Shown here one piece after another: positions 16,352 through 40,979 of a stretch of 64,000 bases of DNA (the stretch's first letter is position 1; each line of letters starts with the position of its first letter). Source of the DNA: Thermoplasmata archaeon (GTDB lineage Archaea; Thermoplasmatota; Thermoplasmata; Lutacidiplasmatales; UBA184); the NCBI GenBank assembly GCA_035297125.1, contig DATGZQ010000019.1, positions 12,940 through 76,939 on the forward strand, in the 5' to 3' direction. The notes beneath the pieces were generated by a model. That model was not told the DNA's origin. It made no database searches and saw only the letters and a program-made list of their open reading frames with translations. A program made the position numbers and the translations under genes.

Positions 16352-16436
16352 GCCCGTTCATCCCCTCCACGCCGTCCGGAGCGCGGTTTCGCCCCCTGCC
16401 AAGAGCTATGTAGAGGACGCCCGTCGGTCTCTTCGC

Positions 16437-16747
16437 TAGGCTAGACCGGGGGGTTGGGCGTCCCCTTACACACCGAAACCGTCCTTAGCGGGGGTGACAG
16501 GCAGGAGCGACGTTCGGAGGAGTCGCGCGTCCCGCGTGGCTTCGCAGAAGCTCTGTTCCGCCGGGCCGCGGGCCCCGCGACGAGCGCTCGGAGGAGCGCC
16601 CTAGCGGGTATCCATCACGGGCATCGGGTCAGGTCCTGACGGGAGCAGCCTTACCGTGACCCGTCGACGCTGGCGGGGTGACGGGGCCGAGGAGCGCGCG
16701 AGATCTACGGGCGATTCGTCCGGGCGGCAATCCTGCTGGCCTAGCAC
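16437..16747 (+). ncRNA. candidate signal recognition particle RNA (7S/SRP RNA)
   Basis: The 490-bp ORF-free gap contains GGUCAGGUCC-UGAC-GGGAGCAGCC at 16626-16650, matching the universally conserved SRP helix-8 SRP54-binding motif (GGUCAGGUCCGGAAGGAAGCAGCC). Complementary ends GCUAGGC (about 16437) and GCCUAGC (about 16738) could close helix 1. The length is about 310 nt. A TATA-like CTATGTAGAG lies about 25 bp upstream. Confidence 0.5.
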
Positions 16748-17381: not shown

Positions 17382-18758
17382 ATGGGTGCCATGGCGCCAG
17401 GCTCGAGTGGAAGTGGGGGGGTGGGGGTGTCCCCCAACACGGCCGCCACCCCGGGCCCCGGTGAGATGGCCGCGGTCGTACGCCAGATCCGGGAGACTGT
17501 CCGACGCCACTCGGCGCGGTTCGAGCGGTCGATCCCGCTGATCGCGAGCGAGAACTTGCTCTCACCCTACGCGAAGGAGCTCATGATCTCGGACTTCCAC
17601 TCCCGCTACGCCGAAGGTCTGGTAGGCGATCGGTACTACGAGGGGAACGAGCAGGTCGACGAGGTGGAGACCATCTGTCTCGGCCTCGCCCGCCGCCTGT
17701 TCCGGTGCTCGTTCGCGGACGTCCGCCCCATCTCGGGGACGGTCGCGAACCTCGCCGTGCTGAAGGCGCTCACCGAACCGGGCGACCTCGTCGCCACGAG
17801 CCGCCTCGCCGACGGGGCGCACATCTCGAGCGCGGCGTTCGGCGCGTTCGGCCTACGCAACGTCCGTCCGGTATACTACGCGTGGGATTCGGAGAAGATG
17901 ACGATCGACGTCCCGCGCACGCGCGAGATCCTGAGGGCCGTCCGTCCGAAGACGTGCCTGTTCGGCCTGTCGCTGTTCCTCTTCCCGCTCCCGATCGACG
18001 AGCTCCGGTCGACGATGGAGGAGATCGGCGCCCGCGGCTGGTACGACGGCGCGCACGTGCTCGGCCTCATCGCCGGCGGGCAGTTCCAGGACCCCCTACG
18101 GGAGGGATGCGTCGTGATGAGCGCCTCCACGCACAAGACCCTCCCCGGTCCGCAGCACGGGATCCTTCTCGGCCAGACGGAGGACCCAGAGCTTGTCCAC
18201 CGTCTCCAGTCGGGGGCGTTCCCCGGCGTTACGAGCAACCACCATCTGAACGCCATGGCGGCCCTCGCGGTGAGCCTGGCCGAGCATCTCGAGTTCGGAC
18301 AGGAGTACGCCCGACGGACGATCGCCAACGCCCGGGCGCTCGCCCAGGCGTTGCACGACCGGGGGTTTGACGTCCTGGCCGCCGATCTCGGGTTCACGAG
18401 GTCGCATACCCTCGCCGTCCGGGTGGACTCGGAGGGGGGCGGGGCTGCCGTCGCGCGTCGCCTCGCGAACGCCGGGATCATCGCGAACAAGAACCTCCTG
18501 CCGGGCGACAAGAGCCCGAAGCAGCCCGGCGGGGTCCGCCTGGGCACGCCCGAGGTGACCCGACTCGGGATGGGAGAGGCCGAGATGGTCCGGATCGCCG
18601 AGCTGTTCGACGACCTCCTGCACCGGGGGCGGAGCGTCGAGGACGTGTCGGCCCGGGCCGCCGAGTTGAAGAAGGGGTTCACGACGCTGCGCTACTGCTT
18701 CGGGGCGGGCGAATCCGCGTACCGGTACTACGACCTGGTCGGTCGGGACCCGTCCTAG
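17382..18758 (+). CDS. glyA: serine hydroxymethyltransferase
   Basis: LIASENLLSP, the PLP-site motif SASTHKTLPGPQHG and the overall length. The Gly-rich N-terminus is doubtful, and the true start may be the ATG near 17466 (MAAVVRQIRE). Confidence 0.85.
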   Translation: MGAMAPGSSGSGGVGVSPNTAATPGPGEMAAVVRQIRETVRRHSARFERSIPLIASENLLSPYAKELMISDFHSRYAEGLVGDRYYEGNEQVDEVETICLGLARRLFRCSFADVRPISGTVANLAVLKALTEPGDLVATSRLADGAHISSAAFGAFGLRNVRPVYYAWDSEKMTIDVPRTREILRAVRPKTCLFGLSLFLFPLPIDELRSTMEEIGARGWYDGAHVLGLIAGGQFQDPLREGCVVMSASTHKTLPGPQHGILLGQTEDPELVHRLQSGAFPGVTSNHHLNAMAALAVSLAEHLEFGQEYARRTIANARALAQALHDRGFDVLAADLGFTRSHTLAVRVDSEGGGAAVARRLANAGIIANKNLLPGDKSPKQPGGVRLGTPEVTRLGMGEAEMVRIAELFDDLLHRGRSVEDVSARAAELKKGFTTLRYCFGAGESAYRYYDLVGRDPS

Positions 18759-21538
18759 GGGCCCGGTCCGTCGCCCGCGAGCTCCTCGTCCCGCAGGCGG
18801 AGCGCCTCGTCGAACGCCTCCGTGTCCAGCGTTACCCTCGGCGCGGACGGTCCCGGGGCGAGGCAGAAGCGCGCCTTCCCGTCGGGCCCGACGCTCGCAC
18901 CCAAGGTCCCGTCCGTCACGAGGGACGCGAGCCAGTCGGCGAGGTCCGGCGGGGCGGGAGGAGGCTGCCAGGACGACTCGACCTCGGGCAGGTCGACCGG
19001 CCCGTGCCGGCGCACGATCTCGACGATCGCGGCCCGGCCTTCGGCGAGGCGCTGGAGCTCGCTCTCGTCCGACGGACCCGGAGCTCGGCGGCGAGCCCGC
19101 CGCAACGCGACCAGCATCACGCCGGCCCCGAGCGCGACGATCCCGAGGAGGGCTCCCACGACGCCGTACGGCACGGCCAGATCGTCGGCCGCGGCTAGCG
19201 CCGGTACCGTCAGCGGCCCGAGGAGGGCCTTGCCGGCGCCGTCCAGCACCGTGACGGTCCCGCCTTCGGGACCAGGGGCGGAGAAGTTGACCCAGACCCC
19301 GGTCGAGCCGTTCGATTCGGGCGAGGCGGTCTCGTTCTCTTCGGAGCTCTCGGAGCCCCACACGTACCGGATCGTCACGTTCGCCCCGGGCACAGCGTTG
19401 GCGAACCGGTCCTCCACTTGCCAGTACGTAGCGTTCGTGCGCGTTCCGCTCACGGCCACCACGGGGTCGTAGAGGCGGAGGTGCTCGGTATCCGGGTTCG
19501 CGAGAATGTGGATTTCGGGGACCGCGGACGGTAGGCCCCTTCCGACGAGCTCGACCGAGAATGGGCCGGCGGCGAGCACCTCGACGGTGAGGGCGAGCGT
19601 CCCGTTGACCCAGGCCGCGCCGGGAACCTCGAACGTACCGTTGCCGCCGCCCGTCAGGGGGCCCACGGTGGAGGCGTTGACCCAGCCGACCGGCGCCGTG
19701 GACCCCGGGCCCGCGAGGACGACGCTGGCGTTCGTCGAGAACGTCGGCACCGGCTGGTCCGAGCCGTCCAGCGCCTCCCAGCTCAGCGGAACGGAGCCGC
19801 CGACCACGACCGACGACGCGGGCGGGGTTCCGGTTTCGGTCAGCCGTACGGCCGATGCCGGCCCCACGGTGAGCGCGAGCGCGGAGCGAACGACGGTGCC
19901 GAGGGCATCGCGCGCCGTCAGTGTGAGGGTGACGGAGCCGGTACCGGACGGGACGAACGAGAGCCAGAGTTGGCCGTCGGCGCCCAACTCTCCGCTCTCG
20001 AGCGGGGCGTCCTCCGTGGAAGCGTTCCACCAGTACCGTCCGGGAAGGTCACCGCCCGTGATCGTGGAGGAGACCGAAAGGTTCGCCCCGACCGTCGCGT
20101 TCGGGGTCTCGAGGTCGAGCGAGGTCGCTGCGAGAGGGGCCACGACCGTGACGACGAACGAGACGGACCGGTTCGTCCCTTCCGAGTCCACGGCCCATGC
20201 AGATGCGGTGTACTGCCCGGGCGAAGCGTAGACCGGGTCGAACGTCCAGCTCGGCCCGGGCGCGCTCGTGCACAGCGGGGCACCAGACCCCGGGTCGAGG
20301 CACGCCTCCTCGAACGGAAGGATACCCGAACCCGCCGTGGCGATCAACTCGACCGGGAGCGGGGAGAGCGCGTAGCCGGTCGGGAACCCCGGAGTCACCC
20401 AGAGCGCGGCGGCAGGGTCCACCATGACGCTCGGGAACTGGCCGATCGCGGCCGAGAAGCCGTTCGTGACGTTGAACGCCGGCTGCGCGATGCCGGGTCC
20501 GGTGTAGGTGAGGTTGGCCAGGCACGTGGCCAGGACCGTTCCGGGGCCGTAGGCCGTCGTGCCGCACGGAACCTGGACCGCCGCAAGGCCGAGCCCCGGG
20601 TCGAGCCAGGCCCGATAGGCGTAGCCGGCGGCGCCCACGACCGTCACGTTGGCGGAGACGTTGGAGCCGACGTCCAGTTCGGTACGGTTGAGCTCGGCCT
20701 CCGCGAGCGTCGTCGCGACCGCGTCGAGGGCGATCGTACGCGGAGGGGGCGAGAGGGCCGTTCCGTTGACCGTCGCCTCGGCCTGTACGGTGAGCTTTCC
20801 GGCCGTCGCACCGGGGACGGAAACGATGGTCGCCCGGTCCCCGACGGGGGCGGTGGAGAGCGCCCAACCGGTCCCGTTGAGCGTCCAGGTGTAAGCCGGG
20901 TCGAGCGGAGTCGCGGAGCCGTTCCCCTGCCACCCCGAGGCCACGAGGGAAATCGGGGCACCCGGGGCCACGGTGAGGGTCGACCCGGCGGGCGAGAGCG
21001 TGATGTCTTCGAGCAGCCAGACGAGAGCCAGGTCCGCCGCGTCCGACGTCACGTCGAACGAAAGCGCATAGCCGTCGGGCGGGGGCTCCGAAAGCGAAGG
21101 GGTGAGCGGCCCGATCGCCGAGGAATAATCCGTGCAAACGGTACCGTTCGGTACGGGAGTGCAGTAGCTGCGCGGCGTCGTGGGCGCGAACGAGAACGCT
21201 CCTCCAGCGTCCGTCGTCACCGAACCCGAGAGCGACGCACAGCTGGCGCTCGCCACGACGCCACCGGGTTCGTCCACGACCCAGACGTCCACGAAGTACG
21301 AGAACCGGATCGTGGCACCGCCGGTACCGTTCGGGGGGAGCGGCCCCCCATCGACCTTCAGGGTGCCGGCGTACACGGGCCGCAGGTGCGACCCCGCGCA
21401 GGCACCCGAGGTCGCGAAGGCGGTCGGCGGGCTCGACGAGGAGTGTGGGGGAGGACCCCACGATAGGACGAGGGCAACAATCACCACGGCGACCACCGGA
21501 CCGGGGATCGATCTCGAGAACGAGCCTCCGGCCGGCAC
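18755..21538 (-). CDS. cell-surface (S-layer-like) glycoprotein with signal peptide, C-terminal TM anchor and cytoplasmic tail
   Basis: 927 aa. The N-terminal hydrophobic h-region is VVAVVIVALVL. More than 20 N-x-S/T sequons (NGT, NVS, NAS, NLT, NRT, NET and others) lie in a Thr/Ser/Gly/Ala/Val-rich body. A C-terminal helix VVGALLGIVALGAGVMLVAL is followed by RRARRRA and an acidic tail of about 100 aa. Confidence 0.6.
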   Translation of the reverse strand: MPAGGSFSRSIPGPVVAVVIVALVLSWGPPPHSSSSPPTAFATSGACAGSHLRPVYAGTLKVDGGPLPPNGTGGATIRFSYFVDVWVVDEPGGVVASASCASLSGSVTTDAGGAFSFAPTTPRSYCTPVPNGTVCTDYSSAIGPLTPSLSEPPPDGYALSFDVTSDAADLALVWLLEDITLSPAGSTLTVAPGAPISLVASGWQGNGSATPLDPAYTWTLNGTGWALSTAPVGDRATIVSVPGATAGKLTVQAEATVNGTALSPPPRTIALDAVATTLAEAELNRTELDVGSNVSANVTVVGAAGYAYRAWLDPGLGLAAVQVPCGTTAYGPGTVLATCLANLTYTGPGIAQPAFNVTNGFSAAIGQFPSVMVDPAAALWVTPGFPTGYALSPLPVELIATAGSGILPFEEACLDPGSGAPLCTSAPGPSWTFDPVYASPGQYTASAWAVDSEGTNRSVSFVVTVVAPLAATSLDLETPNATVGANLSVSSTITGGDLPGRYWWNASTEDAPLESGELGADGQLWLSFVPSGTGSVTLTLTARDALGTVVRSALALTVGPASAVRLTETGTPPASSVVVGGSVPLSWEALDGSDQPVPTFSTNASVVLAGPGSTAPVGWVNASTVGPLTGGGNGTFEVPGAAWVNGTLALTVEVLAAGPFSVELVGRGLPSAVPEIHILANPDTEHLRLYDPVVAVSGTRTNATYWQVEDRFANAVPGANVTIRYVWGSESSEENETASPESNGSTGVWVNFSAPGPEGGTVTVLDGAGKALLGPLTVPALAAADDLAVPYGVVGALLGIVALGAGVMLVALRRARRRAPGPSDESELQRLAEGRAAIVEIVRRHGPVDLPEVESSWQPPPAPPDLADWLASLVTDGTLGASVGPDGKARFCLAPGPSAPRVTLDTEAFDEALRLRDEELAGDGPGP

Positions 21539-21607: not shown

Positions 21608-22585
21608 GTGGCGGCCGGCTCCGGTCGAACGGTGCGTGAGCCGGCACCCTCAAGGGAGGGCGTCCCTGCCGTGTCCGTGGTCTCGCGCGTCCGCACGTCG
21701 CTCGTTCCTCCGCGGCTCGCATCGCTCCCCCGGGAGCGGCTCCAGCTCGAGTACTCGTCGCGCTCCATCGTCTTCGCCCGAGATGGCCGCCGCCTCCTGA
21801 GGACCTGGGGGTCGCCCGAGCGGCCGTGGGTCCTCGCGGTCGAGCCCGCGGGCGCCCGGTGGCGCGTGGAGGCTTGGGGCGCGGGTCCGAAGAAGGCCCG
21901 GGAGGCCGCCCGTGCTCTGTTCTCCCTGGACGATCCCCTCGAGGAGTTCTACCGCCACACACGCGCCGACCCGGTGCTCCGCGGTACCGAGCGTGCGTTC
22001 CGCGGGCTGCGGCTTCCCCGCGACGCAAACCTGTACGAGAGTCTCCTCCACGCGATCGTCGGACAACAGCTGTCGGTCGCCGCCGCGAACGCGATCGAGA
22101 AGCGTCTGTTCGAGCGGCTCAGCACTCCGTTCACGGTCGACGGTCTTGAGGTTCCGTGCGTCCCCGCTCCGTCCCGCGTGCTCGACGCCGAGCAGGGCGA
22201 GCTCCGCGCTCTCGGGATGAGCGGGGCGAAGTCCCGGGCGCTCGTGGCGCTGGCGACCTGGGCCTCCGGGAAGCCGCCGAGCGCGCAGGTGCTCCAACGA
22301 CGGTCGCTACCGGCGGCACGGGGCGCGCTCGAACGGCTCCCCGGGGTCGGGCGCTGGACGGCCGAGAACGCGCTCCTGCGGGGAACGGGCCGCCGCGATG
22401 TCTTCGTGGCGGGCGACCTCGGGGTCCGGGTCGCTCTCGAGCGGTACGGCGTCCTGCCACGCTCGGCCCCCGAGGAGGCGGCGCGCGCGTGGGGGGAGCT
22501 CCGGTATCCCGGCTGGGGAAGCTACGCGACGCTCTACCTGTGGCGGAAGCTCGTGGCCGATCGGTTCGAGACCGAGGCCGGTTGA
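21608..22585 (+). CDS. HhH-GPD DNA glycosylase (AlkA / 3-methyladenine glycosylase II-like)
   Basis: HAIVGQQLSVAAANAI followed by LPGVGRWTAENALLRGTGRRDVFVAGD gives the helix-hairpin-helix, Gly/Pro loop and catalytic Asp. The N-terminal domain resembles the AlkA N-terminal domain. Confidence 0.65.
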   Translation: MAAGSGRTVREPAPSREGVPAVSVVSRVRTSLVPPRLASLPRERLQLEYSSRSIVFARDGRRLLRTWGSPERPWVLAVEPAGARWRVEAWGAGPKKAREAARALFSLDDPLEEFYRHTRADPVLRGTERAFRGLRLPRDANLYESLLHAIVGQQLSVAAANAIEKRLFERLSTPFTVDGLEVPCVPAPSRVLDAEQGELRALGMSGAKSRALVALATWASGKPPSAQVLQRRSLPAARGALERLPGVGRWTAENALLRGTGRRDVFVAGDLGVRVALERYGVLPRSAPEEAARAWGELRYPGWGSYATLYLWRKLVADRFETEAG

Positions 22586-23112
22586 TCAGGGCGGCCCGGC
22601 CGACCCCGCGAGCGGGAACGCCTCGACCGTTCGATGGACCGCGCCGCCGGGGCCAAGGACGCTCTCCTTCAGGACGAACTCACTCACCCGGACGGACCGG
22701 GGCGGGGGAGGGGAGCCGGGGTCACGCAGGACGTCGAACGCCCTCCGGCGGTCCGTGGGCGAGCGCACCCGGAACCACGTCAGGTGGGGGACGAACTCTT
22801 CGCGGCGGGCCTGGACCGTCCCTTCCAAGGCCGAGTGCACCCGTCGGGCGAGCTCCATCAGCTCTGCTCGGCCCGAGGTGACGCCGACCCATACGACGCG
22901 CGGGTCGGACGGGGAGGGGAACGCCCCGATCCCCTCCAGCCGGATATCGAACGGACCGATTCCCCTCCCCACCGGGCGCAGCCTTTCGGCGATCCGTGGC
23001 GCCGATTCCGGCGGGACCTCGCCTAGGAATTGGAGGGTGAGGTGCTCGGGGGCGGCACGGCCCACGCTCCCGGGTTCGCCGGTCGGCACCTCGACCGCGA
23101 CGAAGGCGCGCA
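22586..23112 (-). CDS. RNA 2',3'-cyclic phosphodiesterase (2H family, LigT/ThpR-like)
   Basis: Two H-x-T/S-x motifs, HLTLQFLG and HLTWFRV, and about 175 aa. GTG start at 23112. The ORF track adds an implausible Arg-rich N-terminal extension. Confidence 0.7.
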
Positions 23113-23214
23113 CGTCGTCGCATGAGGTCCGCGCCCTCTTACGCTGTCCGGGGGCGCGGCTGCGCCCGCCCCCCGGGCCCTCGCCGCCCGGCGCACCCCG
23201 GGCCGGCTGGGGTG

Positions 23215-25734
23215 TCAGCCGACGCGAAGGGTCCAGACCTGGGCCTCGGCCGGACCGATCCCTTCGGCGCGCAATGCTCGTTTCACGCGGGTCGCCCGTC
23301 GAGCGTCGGCGACCACGAACAGGGCGAACGCACCTCGGGAGCGAGCCTTGAGGAACCCGTGACGGATGCGGGCCGGCCGAAGCGCTCCCGAAACCTCGGC
23401 CTCCACGTGCACGTCCAGGCCACCGAAGAACCGCCACGCCCACCCGTTTCGCACCGTGTCAAGGGCCCCCGCCAAGTCGCGGGCCGAGCCGGCGCGCGCC
23501 CGGTCCGGGATCTGACGGAAGATCGCGTCGGGGAGGGTCGTGTCGTAGCGCCCTTGTCGCACGATCTCGAGGAGGTAGCCTCGGCGGGCGAACGTTCGGA
23601 ACGCCCGAAGGAGGAGCGCCCTGTGCTCTGCGCTCTCCCGCGTGGCGCCCGTAGCCGACCCGAGGCCGAGGCGACGTTCGCCTGCCGGCGTCAACCGGAC
23701 CCCGCCCGGGCCGACCTCGACGTATCCGCGGCGCGCGAGACCTCGAGCGCGATCGCCGATCGTGGCAGGGTCGGGCGAGGGGCCGGGCAGACGTTGGGCA
23801 GCGGAGGTGAGACCGTCCTCGGTAAGGGACCTACCCGACTCCTCGGCGGCCAGCACGGCGAGCAGGAGCCGCTCGGTCGCCGGATCGTCGAGCGATCCGC
23901 AGGGAGCGCTCCGCGCCTCCGGGAGGAATTCCCGGCGAGAGGCGACGACGGCCTCGACCCATGGGTCCGTCGCCAGACCCTGGGGCGCGACTCCGGGAGC
24001 GAGCGGCCGGATCTCGCCGGTCTCGGGGTCTCGCTCGAGGGCGTGACCGGTCGGAAGGTCCGTCAGGAGGCGGTCGGCCTCGGCGGCGGAAAGACCGATC
24101 CAGCCGCCGACCGTCGCGGCGCTCGGTGGGGGTACGCGGAACGCCACCACGTCCCGGGCGACTCCCGCGGCGGCGTGCCGAAGCTCGGGCGCGAGACGTT
24201 CGGGGTACTGGGTCGCGAGCAACAGCCGCAGTCCGAACTTTCTGCCTTCGGCGAGCATCTCGGTCACCAGCCGGGGGGAGAGCCCCTGTACCTCGTCCAG
24301 GACGGTGAGGACCGCGGGGCAACGGCCGCGAGCGGAGCCCCGGGAGGCGAGCCCCAGGTAGACGCGGGCGAGCACGAGGGTCCCGGCGAACGAGGCGGCC
24401 TCGGGCCCGAGGGCGGCGAACGGCAGCCGGACCAAGAGCGAGCGTCCTCCCTCGAGCAGCTCCTCGACCGGCAACCCACCGTCCGCGGGCGAGAGCAGCT
24501 CCGCGAGCGCCGGCACGAGCACGATCTTCGACAACCTGGCCGCCGCGGCCCAGAGGAAGTCGGGGTTCCGGCGAGCGATCGGCGCCAGCTCCTCGAGGAA
24601 CCGGACCAGGTCGGTGCTCCGCGAAGCTAGCCGAGCGGCATCTCGGCGGTCCGCGTCGGCGAGGAGCGCGTAGAGGTCGTGGAGCGAGCCCCCCGACTCC
24701 TGGACGATTCGGACGAACGCGTCGAAGATCCGCTCGAGGCGGAACCCCCAGTAGACGTCCGTGCCGTCCGCGCTGAGACGCTTAATCGCCGCGACAAGGT
24801 GCGCCGCGGACCGCTCGTCCGAACCGGCGAGGGCCGCGATGCCCGGCAACGGCCGGTCGAGCGCGTCGACCGCCACGACCCGGCGCCGGACGTCCGCCGG
24901 GAGCCGCGCGACGATCGCGGGAGCCAGGTCACCGTGCAGATCGATCGCGACCACCGCCTCGTGCCGGATGATCGCTCGCGACGCCCGCTCCGCGAGGAAC
25001 CAGGTCTTCCCGGCACCGGACGCACCCAGGACCACTCCGTGGCCGACCCGGCACGGCTCCGCTTCGACGCTGGCGAACGGCGCCGGTTCGGCCGTCCTCT
25101 CGACCGTGGCTGGAAGGAACGCGCCCCACGCGTCCCGGGGTATCGACCGGGTCGCGGCGCGGCGCCAGTCGCGACGCGCACCGTAGCCGGAAGGGCGAAC
25201 GGTCGCGCTCCTCCCGGTGGCATGCGCCCACTCCTGGGCCACGGTCGCGGCCACGGCGGAGAACCGCGCGTGGACGTCCCGCGGGGTCGACCCGGAGAGC
25301 CGGAACCGTCGGGCCGCCCAGAGACGACCGTCCTCTCCCCTCGCCCAGAACGTCTGGAAGCCGAGCCAGCCTCCGGGGCCCAGAAGCGGGGCCGATTCGG
25401 GCGGAGCTCGGAGCGACTCCGCGGTCGCGAACGTAGGCGCCCCAGGGACGAGGATCCCGTAGGCGTCGGCTCCCCGGTAATCCGGTTCGTCCGCGGACCG
25501 GGTGGGGCCGGTCTCGACCGGGGTTCCGGCGAACGTCGGCATCGCGGCCAGCGGGGCGAGGAGCGACGACGGCCGGGCGGTCACCCGGGGAACCGGTAGG
25601 TCGAGCGTCGACTCGAACAGCACCAGGCCACCCGGCTCGGAGGCCAGTAGTCCCTCGGCAAGTGCCCGGTAGAATCGGCGACGGACGGGGTACGGGCCCG
25701 GAGACGAGGTCGTAATCGCCTCGTGGGGCGTCAT
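23215..25734 (-). CDS. FtsK/HerA-superfamily P-loop ATPase with C-terminal winged-helix and nuclease-like domains
   Basis: 839 aa. Walker A GASGAGKTWF, Walker B AVLTVLDEVQGL and an FtsK-like LLLATQYPERL motif. C-terminal wHTH-like segments (LLLAVLAAEESGRSLTEDGL...GYVEV) are followed by a conserved-looking 130-aa tail with charged residues in a PD-(D/E)xK-like order (YDTTLPD...GLDVHVEAEVS...FLKAR). The N-terminal 210 aa match no domain I recognise. Confidence 0.55.
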   Translation of the reverse strand: MTPHEAITTSSPGPYPVRRRFYRALAEGLLASEPGGLVLFESTLDLPVPRVTARPSSLLAPLAAMPTFAGTPVETGPTRSADEPDYRGADAYGILVPGAPTFATAESLRAPPESAPLLGPGGWLGFQTFWARGEDGRLWAARRFRLSGSTPRDVHARFSAVAATVAQEWAHATGRSATVRPSGYGARRDWRRAATRSIPRDAWGAFLPATVERTAEPAPFASVEAEPCRVGHGVVLGASGAGKTWFLAERASRAIIRHEAVVAIDLHGDLAPAIVARLPADVRRRVVAVDALDRPLPGIAALAGSDERSAAHLVAAIKRLSADGTDVYWGFRLERIFDAFVRIVQESGGSLHDLYALLADADRRDAARLASRSTDLVRFLEELAPIARRNPDFLWAAAARLSKIVLVPALAELLSPADGGLPVEELLEGGRSLLVRLPFAALGPEAASFAGTLVLARVYLGLASRGSARGRCPAVLTVLDEVQGLSPRLVTEMLAEGRKFGLRLLLATQYPERLAPELRHAAAGVARDVVAFRVPPPSAATVGGWIGLSAAEADRLLTDLPTGHALERDPETGEIRPLAPGVAPQGLATDPWVEAVVASRREFLPEARSAPCGSLDDPATERLLLAVLAAEESGRSLTEDGLTSAAQRLPGPSPDPATIGDRARGLARRGYVEVGPGGVRLTPAGERRLGLGSATGATRESAEHRALLLRAFRTFARRGYLLEIVRQGRYDTTLPDAIFRQIPDRARAGSARDLAGALDTVRNGWAWRFFGGLDVHVEAEVSGALRPARIRHGFLKARSRGAFALFVVADARRATRVKRALRAEGIGPAEAQVWTLRVG

Positions 25735-25955
25735 GGGTGGTCCTGCTCCCTCGGGCTCAGGTTGGGCAGGGTCCGACGGGGTGGCAGTCCCGACCCGTCG
25801 GGAACAACGATCTTCGGCGGTCGCAGAACGGGTTGGCTAGGAATAGGTTCGCTCGGGCGAGCGGCGTCTTCTCCTTCCATCATGGTTCGCATACTTTCTG
25901 CCCACGCCGACGGGTCCGTCGGCCGGGTTGTGTGTCGGGCGGCGTCAACGCTCAC
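25731..25955 (-). CDS. small Pro-rich hypothetical protein translationally coupled to the ATPase
   Basis: 74 aa. Its stop overlaps the ATPase ATG as ATGA. No motifs. Existence is uncertain. Confidence 0.25.
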   Translation of the reverse strand: MSVDAARHTTRPTDPSAWAESMRTMMEGEDAARPSEPIPSQPVLRPPKIVVPDGSGLPPRRTLPNLSPREQDHP

Positions 25956-26621
25956 GGCGGACGCAACGTCGGCGACCCTCGGGGGACCCGGCTCCTCGAG
26001 CAGACCGTCGAGGGACCCGAGGCTCGTGGCGTCGGTAGAAGCCGATGCGGTCGCCTGCCCGTCCTGGGTGCGTTGGATCGAGCGAGGCGGTCGGGCCCGG
26101 CCGGGCGGACGCTCGCGGACGGCGGCCCCGGAGGTCCTGTGCTTGGGGGCGGCGCCGGGCTCTAGGACTCAGAGATCGTGGCGCGACGGGCCGGTCGATC
26201 GAGGCCGGTAGGAGGCCCGCAGAGCCGGGGGGCGGCCGGGCGGTCGAGGGCTTGCGCGTCGGGGATCGTCGGGGTGCGCGACCGAACGGGAAAGGCGGTC
26301 GGGGACGCGGACGAAAGGGGCGACGGCAGGCAACGCATCGAATTCGGCATCCCTACGGGTTCCCGGGGGAGACGTTCGTTCGGAACTTCGAGAACGATGG
26401 AACCTGGTAGGAAGGCCCCCGCACGCCCGAGACTCGGTGCCGAGTCTCCTTTGGGCGATGTTGAGGGTCCTTCCCTGGGTTGGTTGCGAAAGAACAACCC
26501 TCCCGCGACTACTTGAACGCCGGAAGGAGGGGGTGTGAAACGCCCCTCCCGAGCGGCCGTTGCGAGGAAGGGGAGCTTTCCGAGGATCCGTCGGGCGGGG
26601 GAAGGATCCCTCCGCGACGGG

Positions 26622-27107
26622 TCAGCGCTTCGCCCGGCTCTCGGTCTCGCCGAGGACGATGCGGGGCAGTTCGCCCTGGATCACGGGCGGACGCCGCGCC
26701 GACGCGCTCGTGCGGGCTGCGGCCTGCCGTCGCGGGAGGAGCCAGCGTTCGCCCCATTGGCGGAGCTCCCGGGCGGCCGGAGCGAGCCCGAGCCCCATCT
26801 CCGTCAGGGAGTAGACGACCGAGAACGGTCGGGTGCTCACGACCGTCCGCTGGACGACTCCCTGGCCTTCGAGGAACTTGAGCGTCGCGCTCAGCGTCTT
26901 CGCATTGAGCCGGGTGTTCGACTTCAGGATCTCGCTGAACCGTTGCGGCCCTTCGAGGAGCCGGTGGACGATCGCGAGCCGCCACTCGGTGCCGATCACA
27001 CCGACGGCAGCGAGCACGGGGCAGATCGAGGTACCGTCCTCCGCATCGCACGTGTCGGACCCATCGGCGCTCGCCCCGGCCGCCCGACGAATCCGCTCGC
27101 TTTGCAT
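26622..27107 (-). CDS. HxlR-family (DUF24) winged-helix transcriptional regulator
   Basis: 161 aa. ICPVLAAVGVIGTEWRLAIVHRLLEGPQRFSEI...VVYSLTEMG is the canonical HxlR core, including the N-terminal Cys. Confidence 0.75.
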   Translation of the reverse strand: MQSERIRRAAGASADGSDTCDAEDGTSICPVLAAVGVIGTEWRLAIVHRLLEGPQRFSEILKSNTRLNAKTLSATLKFLEGQGVVQRTVVSTRPFSVVYSLTEMGLGLAPAARELRQWGERWLLPRRQAAARTSASARRPPVIQGELPRIVLGETESRAKR

Positions 27108-40849: not shown

Positions 40850-40894
40850 ACGCGGGCCCCGACCGGTGGAAGCGCCCCGGTCGGACCGGGGGAG

Positions 40895-40979
40895 TGCGGG
40901 GAGAGGGATTTGAACCCACGAACCCCTACGGGACCAGACCCTGAATCTGGCGCCTTTGACCAAGCTGGGCGATCCCCGC
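40895..40979 (-). tRNA. tRNA-Leu (anticodon CAG)
   Basis: The minus-strand read GCGGGGATCGCCCAGCTTGGTCAAAGGCGCCAGATTCAGGGTCTGGTCCCGTAGGGGTTCGTGGGTTCAAATCCCTCTCCCCGCA folds as a cloverleaf. It has a 7-bp acceptor stem, an anticodon loop TTCAGGG and a long variable arm (type II). The T-loop is GTTCAAATCC. CCA is not encoded. Confidence 0.75.

Follow-up and report, generated by a model that had tools for sequence, protein, structure and literature searches.

A conserved FtsK-HerA superfamily ATPase with a winged helix and a candidate nuclease domain in a vertically inherited operon of Thermoplasmata

The window, the whole stretch of 64,000 nucleotides that was analyzed, encodes on its minus strand an ATPase of 839 aa (23215..25734, stop codon included). 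The large open reading frame of the initial annotation is real, and its start agrees with the starts of 46 homologs in the alignment. The protein consists of an N-terminal alpha/beta domain (residues 1-215; 25090..25734), a P-loop ATPase core similar to TrwB, VirB4, DndH, and HerA (residues ~228-585; 23980..25053), a winged helix-turn-helix (wHTH) domain (residues 618-689; 23668..23883), and a C-terminal alpha/beta domain (residues 700-839; 23218..23637). The AlphaFold model of the entire protein has a pLDDT of 83.9 and a pTM of 0.68. On the same strand, the gene is followed by a LigT/ThpR-type 2H phosphoesterase gene (22586..23113) and preceded by a 74-aa ORF (25731..25955), a structured small RNA (sRNA) gene (26409..26517), and an HxlR regulator gene (26622-27107).

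The FtsK-HerA superfamily is characterized by a Walker A motif of GxxGxGK[ST], a Walker B motif of hhhhDE, a conserved polar residue (Q) following the sensor strand, and an arginine finger region. The ATPase has Walker A as GASGAGKT (residues 237-244; 25003..25026), Walker B as LDEVQ (residues 479-483; 24286..24300), RKFG after Walker B (residues 497-501; nt 24232-24246), and ATQ (residues 507-509) within ATQYP (residues 507-511; nt 24202-24216). These motifs are intact and conserved; G237, G240, G242, and K243 of Walker A, as well as D480, E481, R498, K499, F500, Q509, and P511, do not vary across 47 sequences. In the model, the core contains an all-alpha insertion at residues ~307-430 (nt 24445-24816). 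The Foldseek search of the core against PDB gave TrwK/VirB4 (8rtd) as the top match (E 4e-10), along with TrwB (1e9s, TMt 0.56-0.58), DndH-C (7es4), VirB4 (4ag5), and HerA (4d2i/9x1m). The matches to TrwB, VirB4, and HerA range from E 4e-10 to 1e-6. A profile of the ATPase matched HerA and TrwB among PDB sequences, and the HerA-class matches from profile and structure comparisons include 9x1l, 8wiv, 4d2i, 8zit, and 8j4u. The Pfam model TrwB_AAD_bind was below threshold on the P-loop region, and the PADLOC model for mad8 matched residues 231-520 (E 1.5e-10). By its predicted fold, the core belongs to the TrwB/VirB4/DndH-HerA branch of the superfamily. The motifs and the superfamily assignment in the initial annotation are thereby confirmed. 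As it had also stated, no described family or system is matched by the 839-aa protein above threshold.

The N-terminal region, noted earlier as ~210 aa without a recognizable domain, has indeed no match in Pfam (E<=10), NCBIfam, or PDB sequences, and tier-2 relatives do not match residues 1-215. Its residues Q127, T128, W130, R143, W190, and W203 are invariant in the 47-sequence alignment. Two wHTH-like segments had been proposed downstream, one of which is retained. In a separate model of the C-terminal part (pLDDT 87, pTM 0.80), DSSP assigned residues 618-689 the order H-H-H-beta-beta, which corresponds to a three-helix bundle with a beta-hairpin wing. Local Foldseek over ~75 residues matched this domain to SSo2273 (2x4h; prob 1.0, rmsd 2.9-3.6) and to MexR, the CggR DNA-binding domain, the KAT6A winged helix, and MotA (prob 0.9-1.0). 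The other segment, residues 536-578, is a short helix-helix-hairpin.

The C-terminal domain shows no Pfam or PDB sequence match, but its conserved residues are distinctive. E700, H704, E723, Q727, P735-D736, E778-x-E780, and K796 are invariant in tier-1 and tier-2 relatives. The segments YDTTLPD, DVHVEAEVS, and FLKAR, from which a PD-(D/E)xK-like tail had been suggested, are present with their key residues invariant in 38-47 homologs, in the order expected, and the motifs are retained in a distant 1378-aa relative, P0256 (hhalign 97%). The PD-(D/E)xK fold has an alpha-beta-beta-beta-alpha-beta core, in which an acidic residue starts beta2 (PD) and (D/E)xK lies on beta3. DSSP gave alpha-beta-beta-[helical insert]-beta-alpha-beta-alpha-beta for the model: alpha (702-717), beta (723-724), beta (737-739) preceded by P735-D736, a helical insertion between beta2 and beta3, beta (774-779) with E778 and then E780, alpha (787-799) with K796, and further beta, alpha, and beta elements. 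The motifs are thus on the elements expected for PD-(D/E)xK, whereas (D/E)xK has Glu in place of its canonical Lys (PD...ExE), and the Lys is displaced to the next helix. Nuclease matches recur over the ~130 residues: viral endodeoxyribonuclease I (prob 0.91), "Nuclease" (TMt 0.52), VRR-NUC, and restriction endonucleases, all at E>0.006, and FokI (E 0.03). All of them are sub-significant, and no known PD-(D/E)xK member is matched significantly by structure or profile. Because every structural match has E > 1e-3 (best 0.006-0.03), the nuclease fold, although plausible, is not established. A divergent PD-(D/E)xK-type nuclease of the variant PD...ExE...K is the most likely identity of the domain.

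The downstream neighbor is assigned to LigT by Pfam LigT_PEase (E 9e-19, 67.9 bits vs. cutoff 23.3) and 2_5_RNA_ligase2 (E 3.4e-17, 63.3 bits vs. cutoff 27). It has both HxT motifs of catalytic 2H phosphoesterases, HLTL and HLTW. Its start is uncertain; the most likely one is the GTG at 23113, ~100 nt past the ATPase stop, which gives 175 aa. In 76 of 85 loci, LigT is the next gene downstream of the ATPase and lies on the same strand; the spacing is mostly 24-25 nt, and -4 nt in seven loci. The linkage is kept in tier-2 relatives, even when another gene is inserted between the two.

The 74-aa ORF, described earlier as translationally coupled, does exist, and its TGA overlaps the ATG of the ATPase, but it lacks a coding signature. 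Its GC1/2/3 values are 0.71/0.60/0.67, against ~0.77/0.58/0.85 in real genes, and it is detectable only in a 92%-identical strain, at 70% identity. It shares just the N-terminal SEPIPSQP with a family of ~106-aa small proteins, whose genes directly precede that of the ATPase in 55 of 92 related sources, and the HMM of this family finds no match in the window. The ORF is a degenerate remnant of a ~106-aa partner gene, which belonged to the ancestral operon and has decayed here, and it is probably not functional in this genome. Tier-2 operons contain the small ORF, the ATPase, MTase_II, and LigT. In a sister clade (L086, L087, L090, and L091), a Type II-class N6/N4 DNA methyltransferase gene directly follows the ATPase (PADLOC MTase_II, E 3.7e-134). 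In tblastn with the tier-2 protein, the methyltransferase is absent from the window and from all tier-1 loci. The combination of a cognate methyltransferase with the nuclease, which defines restriction-modification, is therefore seen only in the sister clade. The methyltransferase there fits a DNA-targeting, restriction-like ancestry.

In total, 349 full-length homologs of the ATPase were found, at 52-97% identity, all in Thermoplasmata. They are distributed in at least 123 species-level genomes of Ca. Lutacidiplasmatales and relatives, a part of Thermoplasmata and not archaea at large. Ca. Lutacidiplasmatales is an abundant, uncultured archaeal order of acid soils with a proteome that is about two-thirds novel (PMC9287336). 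HxlR, LigT, HhH-GPD, SHMT, DUF4147, DAO, PhoU, SRP RNA, and similar neighbors surround the gene in the window and at ~90 related loci, and this housekeeping synteny is conserved down to 41% identity. The HxlR regulator, HhH-GPD glycosylase, and 2H phosphoesterase were correctly recognized as neighbors in the initial annotation. The HhH-GPD gene abuts the end of the operon in convergent orientation, and therefore is not co-transcribed with it; it is absent from some related loci. The ATPase co-diverges with its flanking genes (Pearson 0.70-0.84), at a rate like that of a metabolic enzyme, and no GC deviation was found at the locus. Insertions into the neighboring variable gap in other genomes consist of metabolic genes and not of defense or mobile genes. 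Since the synteny is invariable and the divergence parallels that of the neighbors, the ATPase is a vertically inherited core-genome gene and not part of a mobile defense island, contrary to the variable location once considered. Distant relatives sit beside integrases, and one of them, P0268, has an integrase and an antitoxin as neighbors. In broader relatives, TraG-D_C and T4SS-DNA_transf signatures are found.

Among characterized proteins, type IV coupling proteins (T4CPs) of the TrwB/VirD4/TraG group likewise have a P-loop nucleotide-binding domain in which an all-alpha insertion separates Walker A from Walker B. TrwB (1e9s/1gl6) is the best single-domain structural match, with TMt 0.56-0.58 and rmsd ~5.6 A over ~410 columns. 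The ATPase differs from them in having an extra 215-aa N-terminal domain, the wHTH, and the nuclease-like C-terminal domain, and in being a chromosomal core gene. T4CP family models (PF10412, PF02534, TIGR03743, and TIGR03754) do not assign it: PF10412 scored 16.4 bits vs. 20.5, TIGR03743 14.9 vs. 366, and TIGR03754 13.6 vs. 647. There is no N-terminal membrane anchor; the maximum 19-residue Kyte-Doolittle value, 1.58, is at residue 393 within the core. T4SS, relaxase, and conjugative-element genes are absent from the window and ~90 related loci. VirB4/TrwK proteins are of similar size (~800 aa) and give the top Foldseek matches (8rtd, 7o43, and 4ag5; E 4e-10 to 5e-8). However, their ATPase domain is C-terminal, behind a ~400-aa N-domain, whereas it is central here; VirB3/VirB8-type partners are lacking, and the proteins superpose poorly overall (rmsd 10-13 A). 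The CedB model NF041017 scored 17.9 bits vs. a cutoff of 700 on the P-loop stretch only, and CedA/CedA1/A2-type membrane partners are absent among the neighbors.

Motors of the FtsK/HerA/TrwB class coupled to nucleases underpin conjugation, the resection of DNA ends in archaea, and several defense systems that were discovered recently. DndH of DndFGH and TdpAB have an ATPase domain of the same branch (7es4, E 3e-8; 8wfd) and share the concept of ATP-driven DNA translocation with a nuclease, and the sister clade is likewise linked to a DNA-modifying enzyme. Unlike in those systems, dndFG, dndA-E, and tdpB are absent, the nuclease-like domain is fused, and inheritance is vertical instead of island-borne. 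HerA-NurA, Sir2-HerA, and DUF4297-HerA/Nezha are of the same superfamily with the same motor-plus-nuclease logic. Here, in contrast, the effector is fused in cis and the partners are the 2H phosphoesterase and the novel small protein; no NurA, Sir2, or DUF4297 gene is near the ATPase. HerA models do not assign the protein (NCBIfam NF042943, 18.7 bits vs. cutoff 800; PADLOC HerA models, E 2e-5 to 0.04 on stretches of 25-45 residues only). FtsK, in which an alpha-beta motor is followed by a gamma winged helix, also has the winged helix directly after the motor, but the present ATPase has no membrane domain, an extra nuclease-like domain, and a core closer to TrwB/VirB4. Pfam FtsK_SpoIIIE does not match it. 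The similarity to Mad8 concerns only the generic ATPase core. MADS is an eight-gene bacterial operon with a methylase (N6-methyltransferase), a specificity subunit, and a kinase (bioRxiv 10.1101/2023.03.30.534895). The genes mad1-7 are absent near the ATPase, and the neighboring genes are unrelated.

There is about an even chance that the protein is a soluble ATPase fused to one wHTH and a probable nuclease, that is, a domesticated DNA translocase-nuclease in a vertically inherited operon. The ATPase is the central member of an ancient operon in Ca. Lutacidiplasmatales and related Thermoplasmata, which runs from the ~106-aa partner through the ATPase and, in one sister clade, the Type II DNA methyltransferase to LigT. 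The ATPase is probably ring-forming, and its all-alpha insertion is typical of the TrwB/VirB4/DndH-like branch. The wHTH would recruit the enzyme to DNA, the ring would move along DNA using ATP, and the C-terminal domains would cut it, as a single-polypeptide counterpart of HerA-NurA, DndFGH, or TdpAB. TraG/TrwB-like ATPases carried by integrated mobile elements appear to be ancestral to the family, which appears to have been domesticated into an enzyme of chromosomal DNA surveillance or processing. We infer the oligomeric ring, DNA translocation, nuclease activity, and cellular role in this way, as well as a functional tie to LigT; the LigT adjacency could also be inherited synteny and co-transcription without shared function.

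An anti-phage or anti-plasmid defense module, in which an ATP-dependent restriction-like enzyme translocates on and cuts foreign DNA, is unlikely. HerA/TrwB-class ATPases with nuclease-like domains recur in defense systems, the structural neighbors include DndH-C, HerA-Sir2, HerA-DUF4297, and TdpAB, and both the mad8 match to the core and the sister-clade methyltransferase point in this direction. Defense systems are normally patchy and located in islands, however, whereas this gene has fixed housekeeping synteny in at least 123 species, co-diverges with its neighbors, and is of typical composition beside a gap with metabolic insertions; the methyltransferase and the other mad genes are missing. 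The DNA-targeting or defense module first proposed is thus compatible with restriction-like ancestry but unsupported as defense in this genome. Among the outcomes that the initial annotation had named beforehand as refuting it, core-genome synteny was found, a clean mapping to a known family was not, and nuclease-fold support is weak but not absent. It is similarly unlikely that the enzyme is instead a housekeeping translocase-nuclease for DNA repair or chromosome maintenance that serves this lineage as a counterpart of HerA-NurA or of FtsK and its gamma winged helix. The gene is conserved by vertical inheritance across the order and under purifying selection; this, the housekeeping neighbors including the abutting glycosylase, and the FtsK-like layout are consistent with such a role. 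The restriction of the family to part of Thermoplasmata, the convergent and sometimes missing glycosylase gene, and the relatives beside integrases or methyltransferases, which point to an origin in a conflict system or mobile element, argue against it.

The tight and ancient ATPase-LigT linkage, seen in both subfamilies, and the two HxT motifs would suit an operon acting on RNA, in which the motor-nuclease cleaves or remodels RNA and LigT heals 2',3'-cyclic phosphate ends, either in RNA repair or in an RNA-targeting conflict system. Such a role is quite improbable, as characterized TrwB/VirB4/HerA-class motors act on DNA, metal-dependent PD-(D/E)xK nucleases yield 3'-OH and 5'-P and not cyclic phosphates, and the sister-clade methyltransferase is of the DNA N6/N4 type. 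A conjugative coupling protein, a VirB4-like ATPase, or a CedB-like DNA-import ATPase of a DNA transfer apparatus is very improbable. The top structural matches, the weak TrwB_AAD_bind and NCBIfam CedB/TraD matches on the P-loop region, and the T4SS-related signatures of broader relatives are in its favor. The family scores are nevertheless below threshold (16.4 vs. 20.5, 17.9 vs. 700, and 14.9 vs. 366), a transmembrane segment is lacking, pilus, T4SS, relaxase, and Ced genes are absent in ~90 loci, and the gene is in core synteny.

The domesticated translocase-nuclease can be given a more specific, though doubtful, history: an archaeal restriction-like motor-nuclease of a mobile element may have been fixed as an order-wide core gene, losing first the methyltransferase and then, in a sublineage, the small partner, and may now function with the 2H phosphoesterase in a new pathway of nucleic-acid surveillance or repair. 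If so, the PD-ExE-K domain and the N-terminal domain would be two new domain families. The ATPase family is a single-polypeptide version of such motors, with two unassigned domains, and is fixed in the core genome of an uncultured archaeal order. Integrase-adjacent relatives, the methyltransferase-bearing sister clade, and the methyltransferase-less core gene show three stages side by side, a natural series for studying the domestication of an enzyme from a conflict system or mobile element. A nuclease without a cognate methyltransferase in this lineage needs other means of self-protection, and if it is active, host DNA would escape cutting in a new way. Archaeal 2H phosphoesterases may gain a first functional handle from the constant pairing of LigT with the ATPase.

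The gap upstream of the ATPase, ~0.9 kb long and given as about 0.7 kb in the initial annotation, has no credible ORF, as stated there, but it is not empty. It holds a conserved structured sRNA gene, which is not part of the ATPase operon and is present in 69 of 69 loci that have hxlR. The gene includes a TATA-like TTCAAGTA (26510-26517), a conserved GCAACCAACCC (26477-26488), and a 21-bp three-helix hairpin (26409-26474), all on the minus strand. It shows no codon periodicity and matches no Rfam family. Compensatory changes are observed in 17 of the 21 pairs. The pairing is 96.2%, compared with 84.9% when shuffled and <=55% when slid (0 of 500 shuffles), and the copy in the window has z = -4.5. 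Its status as a new RNA family is well supported.

The 839-aa ATPase is encoded at 23215-25734 on the minus strand. Walker A GASGAGKT (residues 237-244), Walker B LDEVQ (residues 479-483) and ATQYP (residues 507-511) are all present, as in the initial annotation, and RKFG is at residues 497-501. The searches against curated libraries (Pfam and NCBIfam) returned only P-loop matches, all below threshold: Pfam TrwB_AAD_bind scored 16.4 bits (cutoff 20.5), and NCBIfam HerA, CedB and TraD scored 14-19 bits (cutoffs 366-800). In PADLOC, mad8 matched the core only (E 1.5e-10) and the HerA matches were very short. Searching PDB sequences with phmmer gave no match to the ATPase, and its family profile matched HerA and TrwB weakly.

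From 47 homologs, AlphaFold2 gave a confident model (pLDDT 83.9, pTM 0.68). The structures in PDB most similar to the core by Foldseek were TrwK/VirB4 (8rtd, 7o43; E 4e-10) and TrwB (1e9s, 1gl6; TMt 0.56-0.58), with further matches to the DndH C-domain (7es4), VirB4 (4ag5), HerA (4d2i, 9x1m), DotL, and the HerA subunits of the Sir2-HerA, DUF4297-HerA and TdpAB complexes. The likeness to TrwB includes an all-alpha insertion (~307-430 in the ATPase) between Walker A and Walker B. No transmembrane helix was found in the ATPase, and thus it is soluble, unlike coupling proteins. The ATPase belongs to the FtsK-HerA superfamily. By the respective defining tests it does not qualify as a member of T4CP, HerA, CedB or MADS. 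No family could be assigned to its N- and C-terminal domains or to the small partner.

The C-terminal region (residues 586-839) was modelled separately (pLDDT 87, pTM 0.80). Two wHTH-like segments had been proposed, of which one canonical winged helix, at 618-689, is seen in the model. This predicted winged helix is confirmed by local fold matches (probability 0.9-1.0) to SSo2273, MexR, CggR, KAT6A-WH and MotA. After it comes an alpha/beta domain (700-839). E700, H704, E723, Q727, P735-D736, E778-x-E780 and K796 are invariant among 38 sequences from two subfamilies, and a distant 1378-aa relative carries the same signature, H..RQG..PD..DVxVExE..K (hhalign 97%, E 3.7e-11). On the model, the invariant residues map to alpha1, beta1, the start of beta2, beta3 and the next helix, an order that would be expected for a PD-(D/E)xK core. 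The candidate nuclease tail departs from the canonical pattern in having Glu where the canonical Lys stands and a helical insertion between beta2 and beta3. BamHI has a comparable ExE arrangement.

The window DNA is archaeal and chromosomal, with ~70% GC. There are 349 detected homologs of the ATPase. The best 120 of the 349 are nearly all full-length with 52-97% identity, and every source-named sequence among them is from a Thermoplasmata MAG. When GTDB species were scanned through a single genome each, 123 genomes proved to encode the ATPase, UBA184 and Ca. Lutacidiplasmatales among them. The latter is an order of acid soils that has not been cultured, and its genomes are ~2.1 Mb in size with ~69% GC (PMC9287336). 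The neighbourhood is retained down to 41% ATPase identity, in the order DUF4147, 209-aa protein (-), HxlR, gap, ATPase, LigT, HhH-GPD (-), ~925-aa protein and SHMT (-), with the SRP RNA beyond. The ATPase identity to the window tracks that of every flanking gene (Pearson 0.70-0.84), and on average the ATPase has diverged exactly as far as the DUF4147 enzyme. Because synteny is conserved, the ATPase co-diverges with its flanks and composition at the locus is unremarkable, the ATPase is a vertically inherited core-genome gene and not part of an island. The initial annotation was largely accurate in its description, but its framing as a defence island is not supported for this genome. The 92%-identical strain (CAVQKI010000001.1, 10001-12519) has a 520-aa protein and split tblastn segments for the ATPase, which suggests that this MAG contains a frameshift or was misassembled there.

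The neighbours are located as previously described. LigT, the 2H phosphoesterase with both HxT motifs (22586-23113, minus strand), follows the ATPase directly and co-directionally in 76 of 85 loci; the commonest spacing is 24-25 nt, and it is -4 nt in seven loci. The HhH-GPD glycosylase (21608-22585, plus strand) is convergent. It is adjoined by a Pfam-less 927-aa protein (18755-21538, minus strand), syntenic in nearly all loci yet fast-evolving (30-60% identity). By eye, this protein is rich in Thr, Ser and Pro, contains N-x-T/S sequons and has a hydrophobic segment close to its C-terminus; it is possibly a surface glycoprotein. The archaeal SRP RNA (16434-16746, plus strand; 129 bits), syntenic in related loci, is ~6.5 kb from the ATPase. 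A tRNA-Leu(CAG) gene is at 40894-40979 (minus strand).

In most loci of close full-length homologs, an ORF of ~105-110 aa overlaps the ATPase start by 4 nt (e.g., L030:9636-9956, L034:9684-10004 and L018:9684-10004). It has a genuine coding signature (GC1/2/3 about 0.79/0.52/0.80) and the conserved core VRLPIAGPYRPRARLY..DGRLLW.VRLWE.DR..L..FAR.N.L. With its HMM, a match is obtained directly 5' of the ATPase in 55 of 92 sources, more distant relatives among them, and none in the window or its nearest relatives. The ~106-aa protein is confined to Thermoplasmata, has no match in Pfam or PADLOC, and is publicly annotated as a gene adjoining the ATPase (e.g., VEE86_02465 beside VEE86_02460). At the corresponding position the window has a 74-aa ORF (25731-25955, minus strand). 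Because it keeps only the N-terminal SEPIPSQP motif of the family, has non-coding-like GC3 and shows poor conservation already in the strain with 92% identity, it is a decayed remnant of the ~106-aa partner, lost in the window's sublineage. The overlap of its TGA with the ATPase ATG is real, but the translational coupling claimed from it is vestigial here.

An exhaustive profile search revealed a second tier of relatives of 860-980 aa, which match the ATPase through the core and the C-terminal domains and have no match to its N-terminal domain. Their archaeal context is partly syntenic (PhoU, SO_alpha/DAO and V-ATPase genes), and the gene order is small ORF, ATPase, [N6_N4 methyltransferase], LigT. 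PADLOC clearly identifies the methyltransferase as a Type II-class DNA MTase (3.7e-134); it sits between the ATPase and LigT at L086:12869-13987, L087:5493-6551, L090:10804-11955 and L091:7328-8479. This sister-clade operon with the inserted MTase is an R-M-like gene set. A homolog of the MTase is absent from the window and the loci of close homologs. Thousands of remoter proteins match the core only, with TrwB_AAD_bind, DUF87 or TraG-D_C signatures. One of these distant relatives (loci L092:3157-12035 and L093:839-4141), P0268, has PD/ExE/K motifs at aligned positions, but with an hhalign probability of only 5.6%. It adjoins a tyrosine integrase and a UPF0175 antitoxin, suggesting an integrated mobile element; a mobile-element origin of the ATPase family is therefore suggested. 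Another, of 1100 aa (P0263), carries an intein.

We consider it an even call that the ATPase is a soluble TrwB/VirB4/DndH-HerA-type translocase in an ancient operon with the 2H phosphoesterase. It would translocate DNA by ATP hydrolysis, probably as a ring, with two domains fused to the motor, a wHTH for DNA binding and a divergent PD-(D/E)xK-type nuclease. Before its apparent domestication, its ancestor would have been restriction-like or part of a mobile element. Motor-nuclease fusions are already a known kind; the ATPase combines such a motor with unassigned N- and C-terminal domains. The architecture and the sister-clade MTase would also fit a bona fide defence module, but given the core synteny, the co-divergence and the lack of the MTase here, this is unlikely. 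A lineage-specific housekeeping enzyme for repair or segregation is rather unlikely as well, and an RNA-directed system working with LigT is very unlikely. Least probable is a conjugative or DNA-import ATPase, because the membrane anchor and partner genes are missing.

The distance between HxlR (26622-27107, minus strand) and the ATPase varies from 0.6 to 4.9 kb. The inserted genes (prolyl oligopeptidase (peptidase S9), GT2 glycosyltransferase, MFS transporter, GNATs, QueA and amidinotransferase) are ordinary or metabolic, unrelated between genomes and in some cases convergent (L012, L030, L050, L067, L077 and others). Therefore, HxlR has no functional tie to the ATPase and the gap is not a defence hotspot. 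On its 5' side, the ATPase operon is bounded by this variable gap.

Directly 3' of hxlR, a non-coding block of ~160 nt is conserved in all 69 hxlR-bearing loci. In the window it is predicted to contain a new sRNA gene that is not tied to the ATPase (26409-26517, minus strand), with a TATA-like TTCAAGTA (26510-26517), the conserved GCAACCAACCC (26477-26488) ~25 nt after it, and a 21-bp three-helix hairpin (26409-26474), all on the minus strand. In an alignment of 66 loci, the 5' block has the consensus GCAACCA(A/C)CCC and the hairpin loops have the invariant motifs A.AUCGCC, GCACCG and GGCGUGCG. Compensatory changes are seen in 17 of the 21 hairpin pairs. Pairing is 96.2%, against 84.9% in shuffled data and <=55% with slid partners, and none of 500 shuffles reaches the observed values. 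Folding of the window copy gives z = -4.5. Many loci have oligo-T tracts after the hairpin, and no Rfam family matches. Right behind the hxlR stop codon lies a conserved hairpin or inverted repeat, GGAACGcc...ggCGTTTC (~26537-26564, minus strand), possibly an operator or a 3' structure of hxlR; its inner stem seems to co-vary by eye, and indels prevented column-based counting. The motifs CAyCGTTC (~26392-26399) and TTCGATGCG (~26335-26343), both on the minus strand, recur 3' of the sRNA across many loci, at distances that vary.
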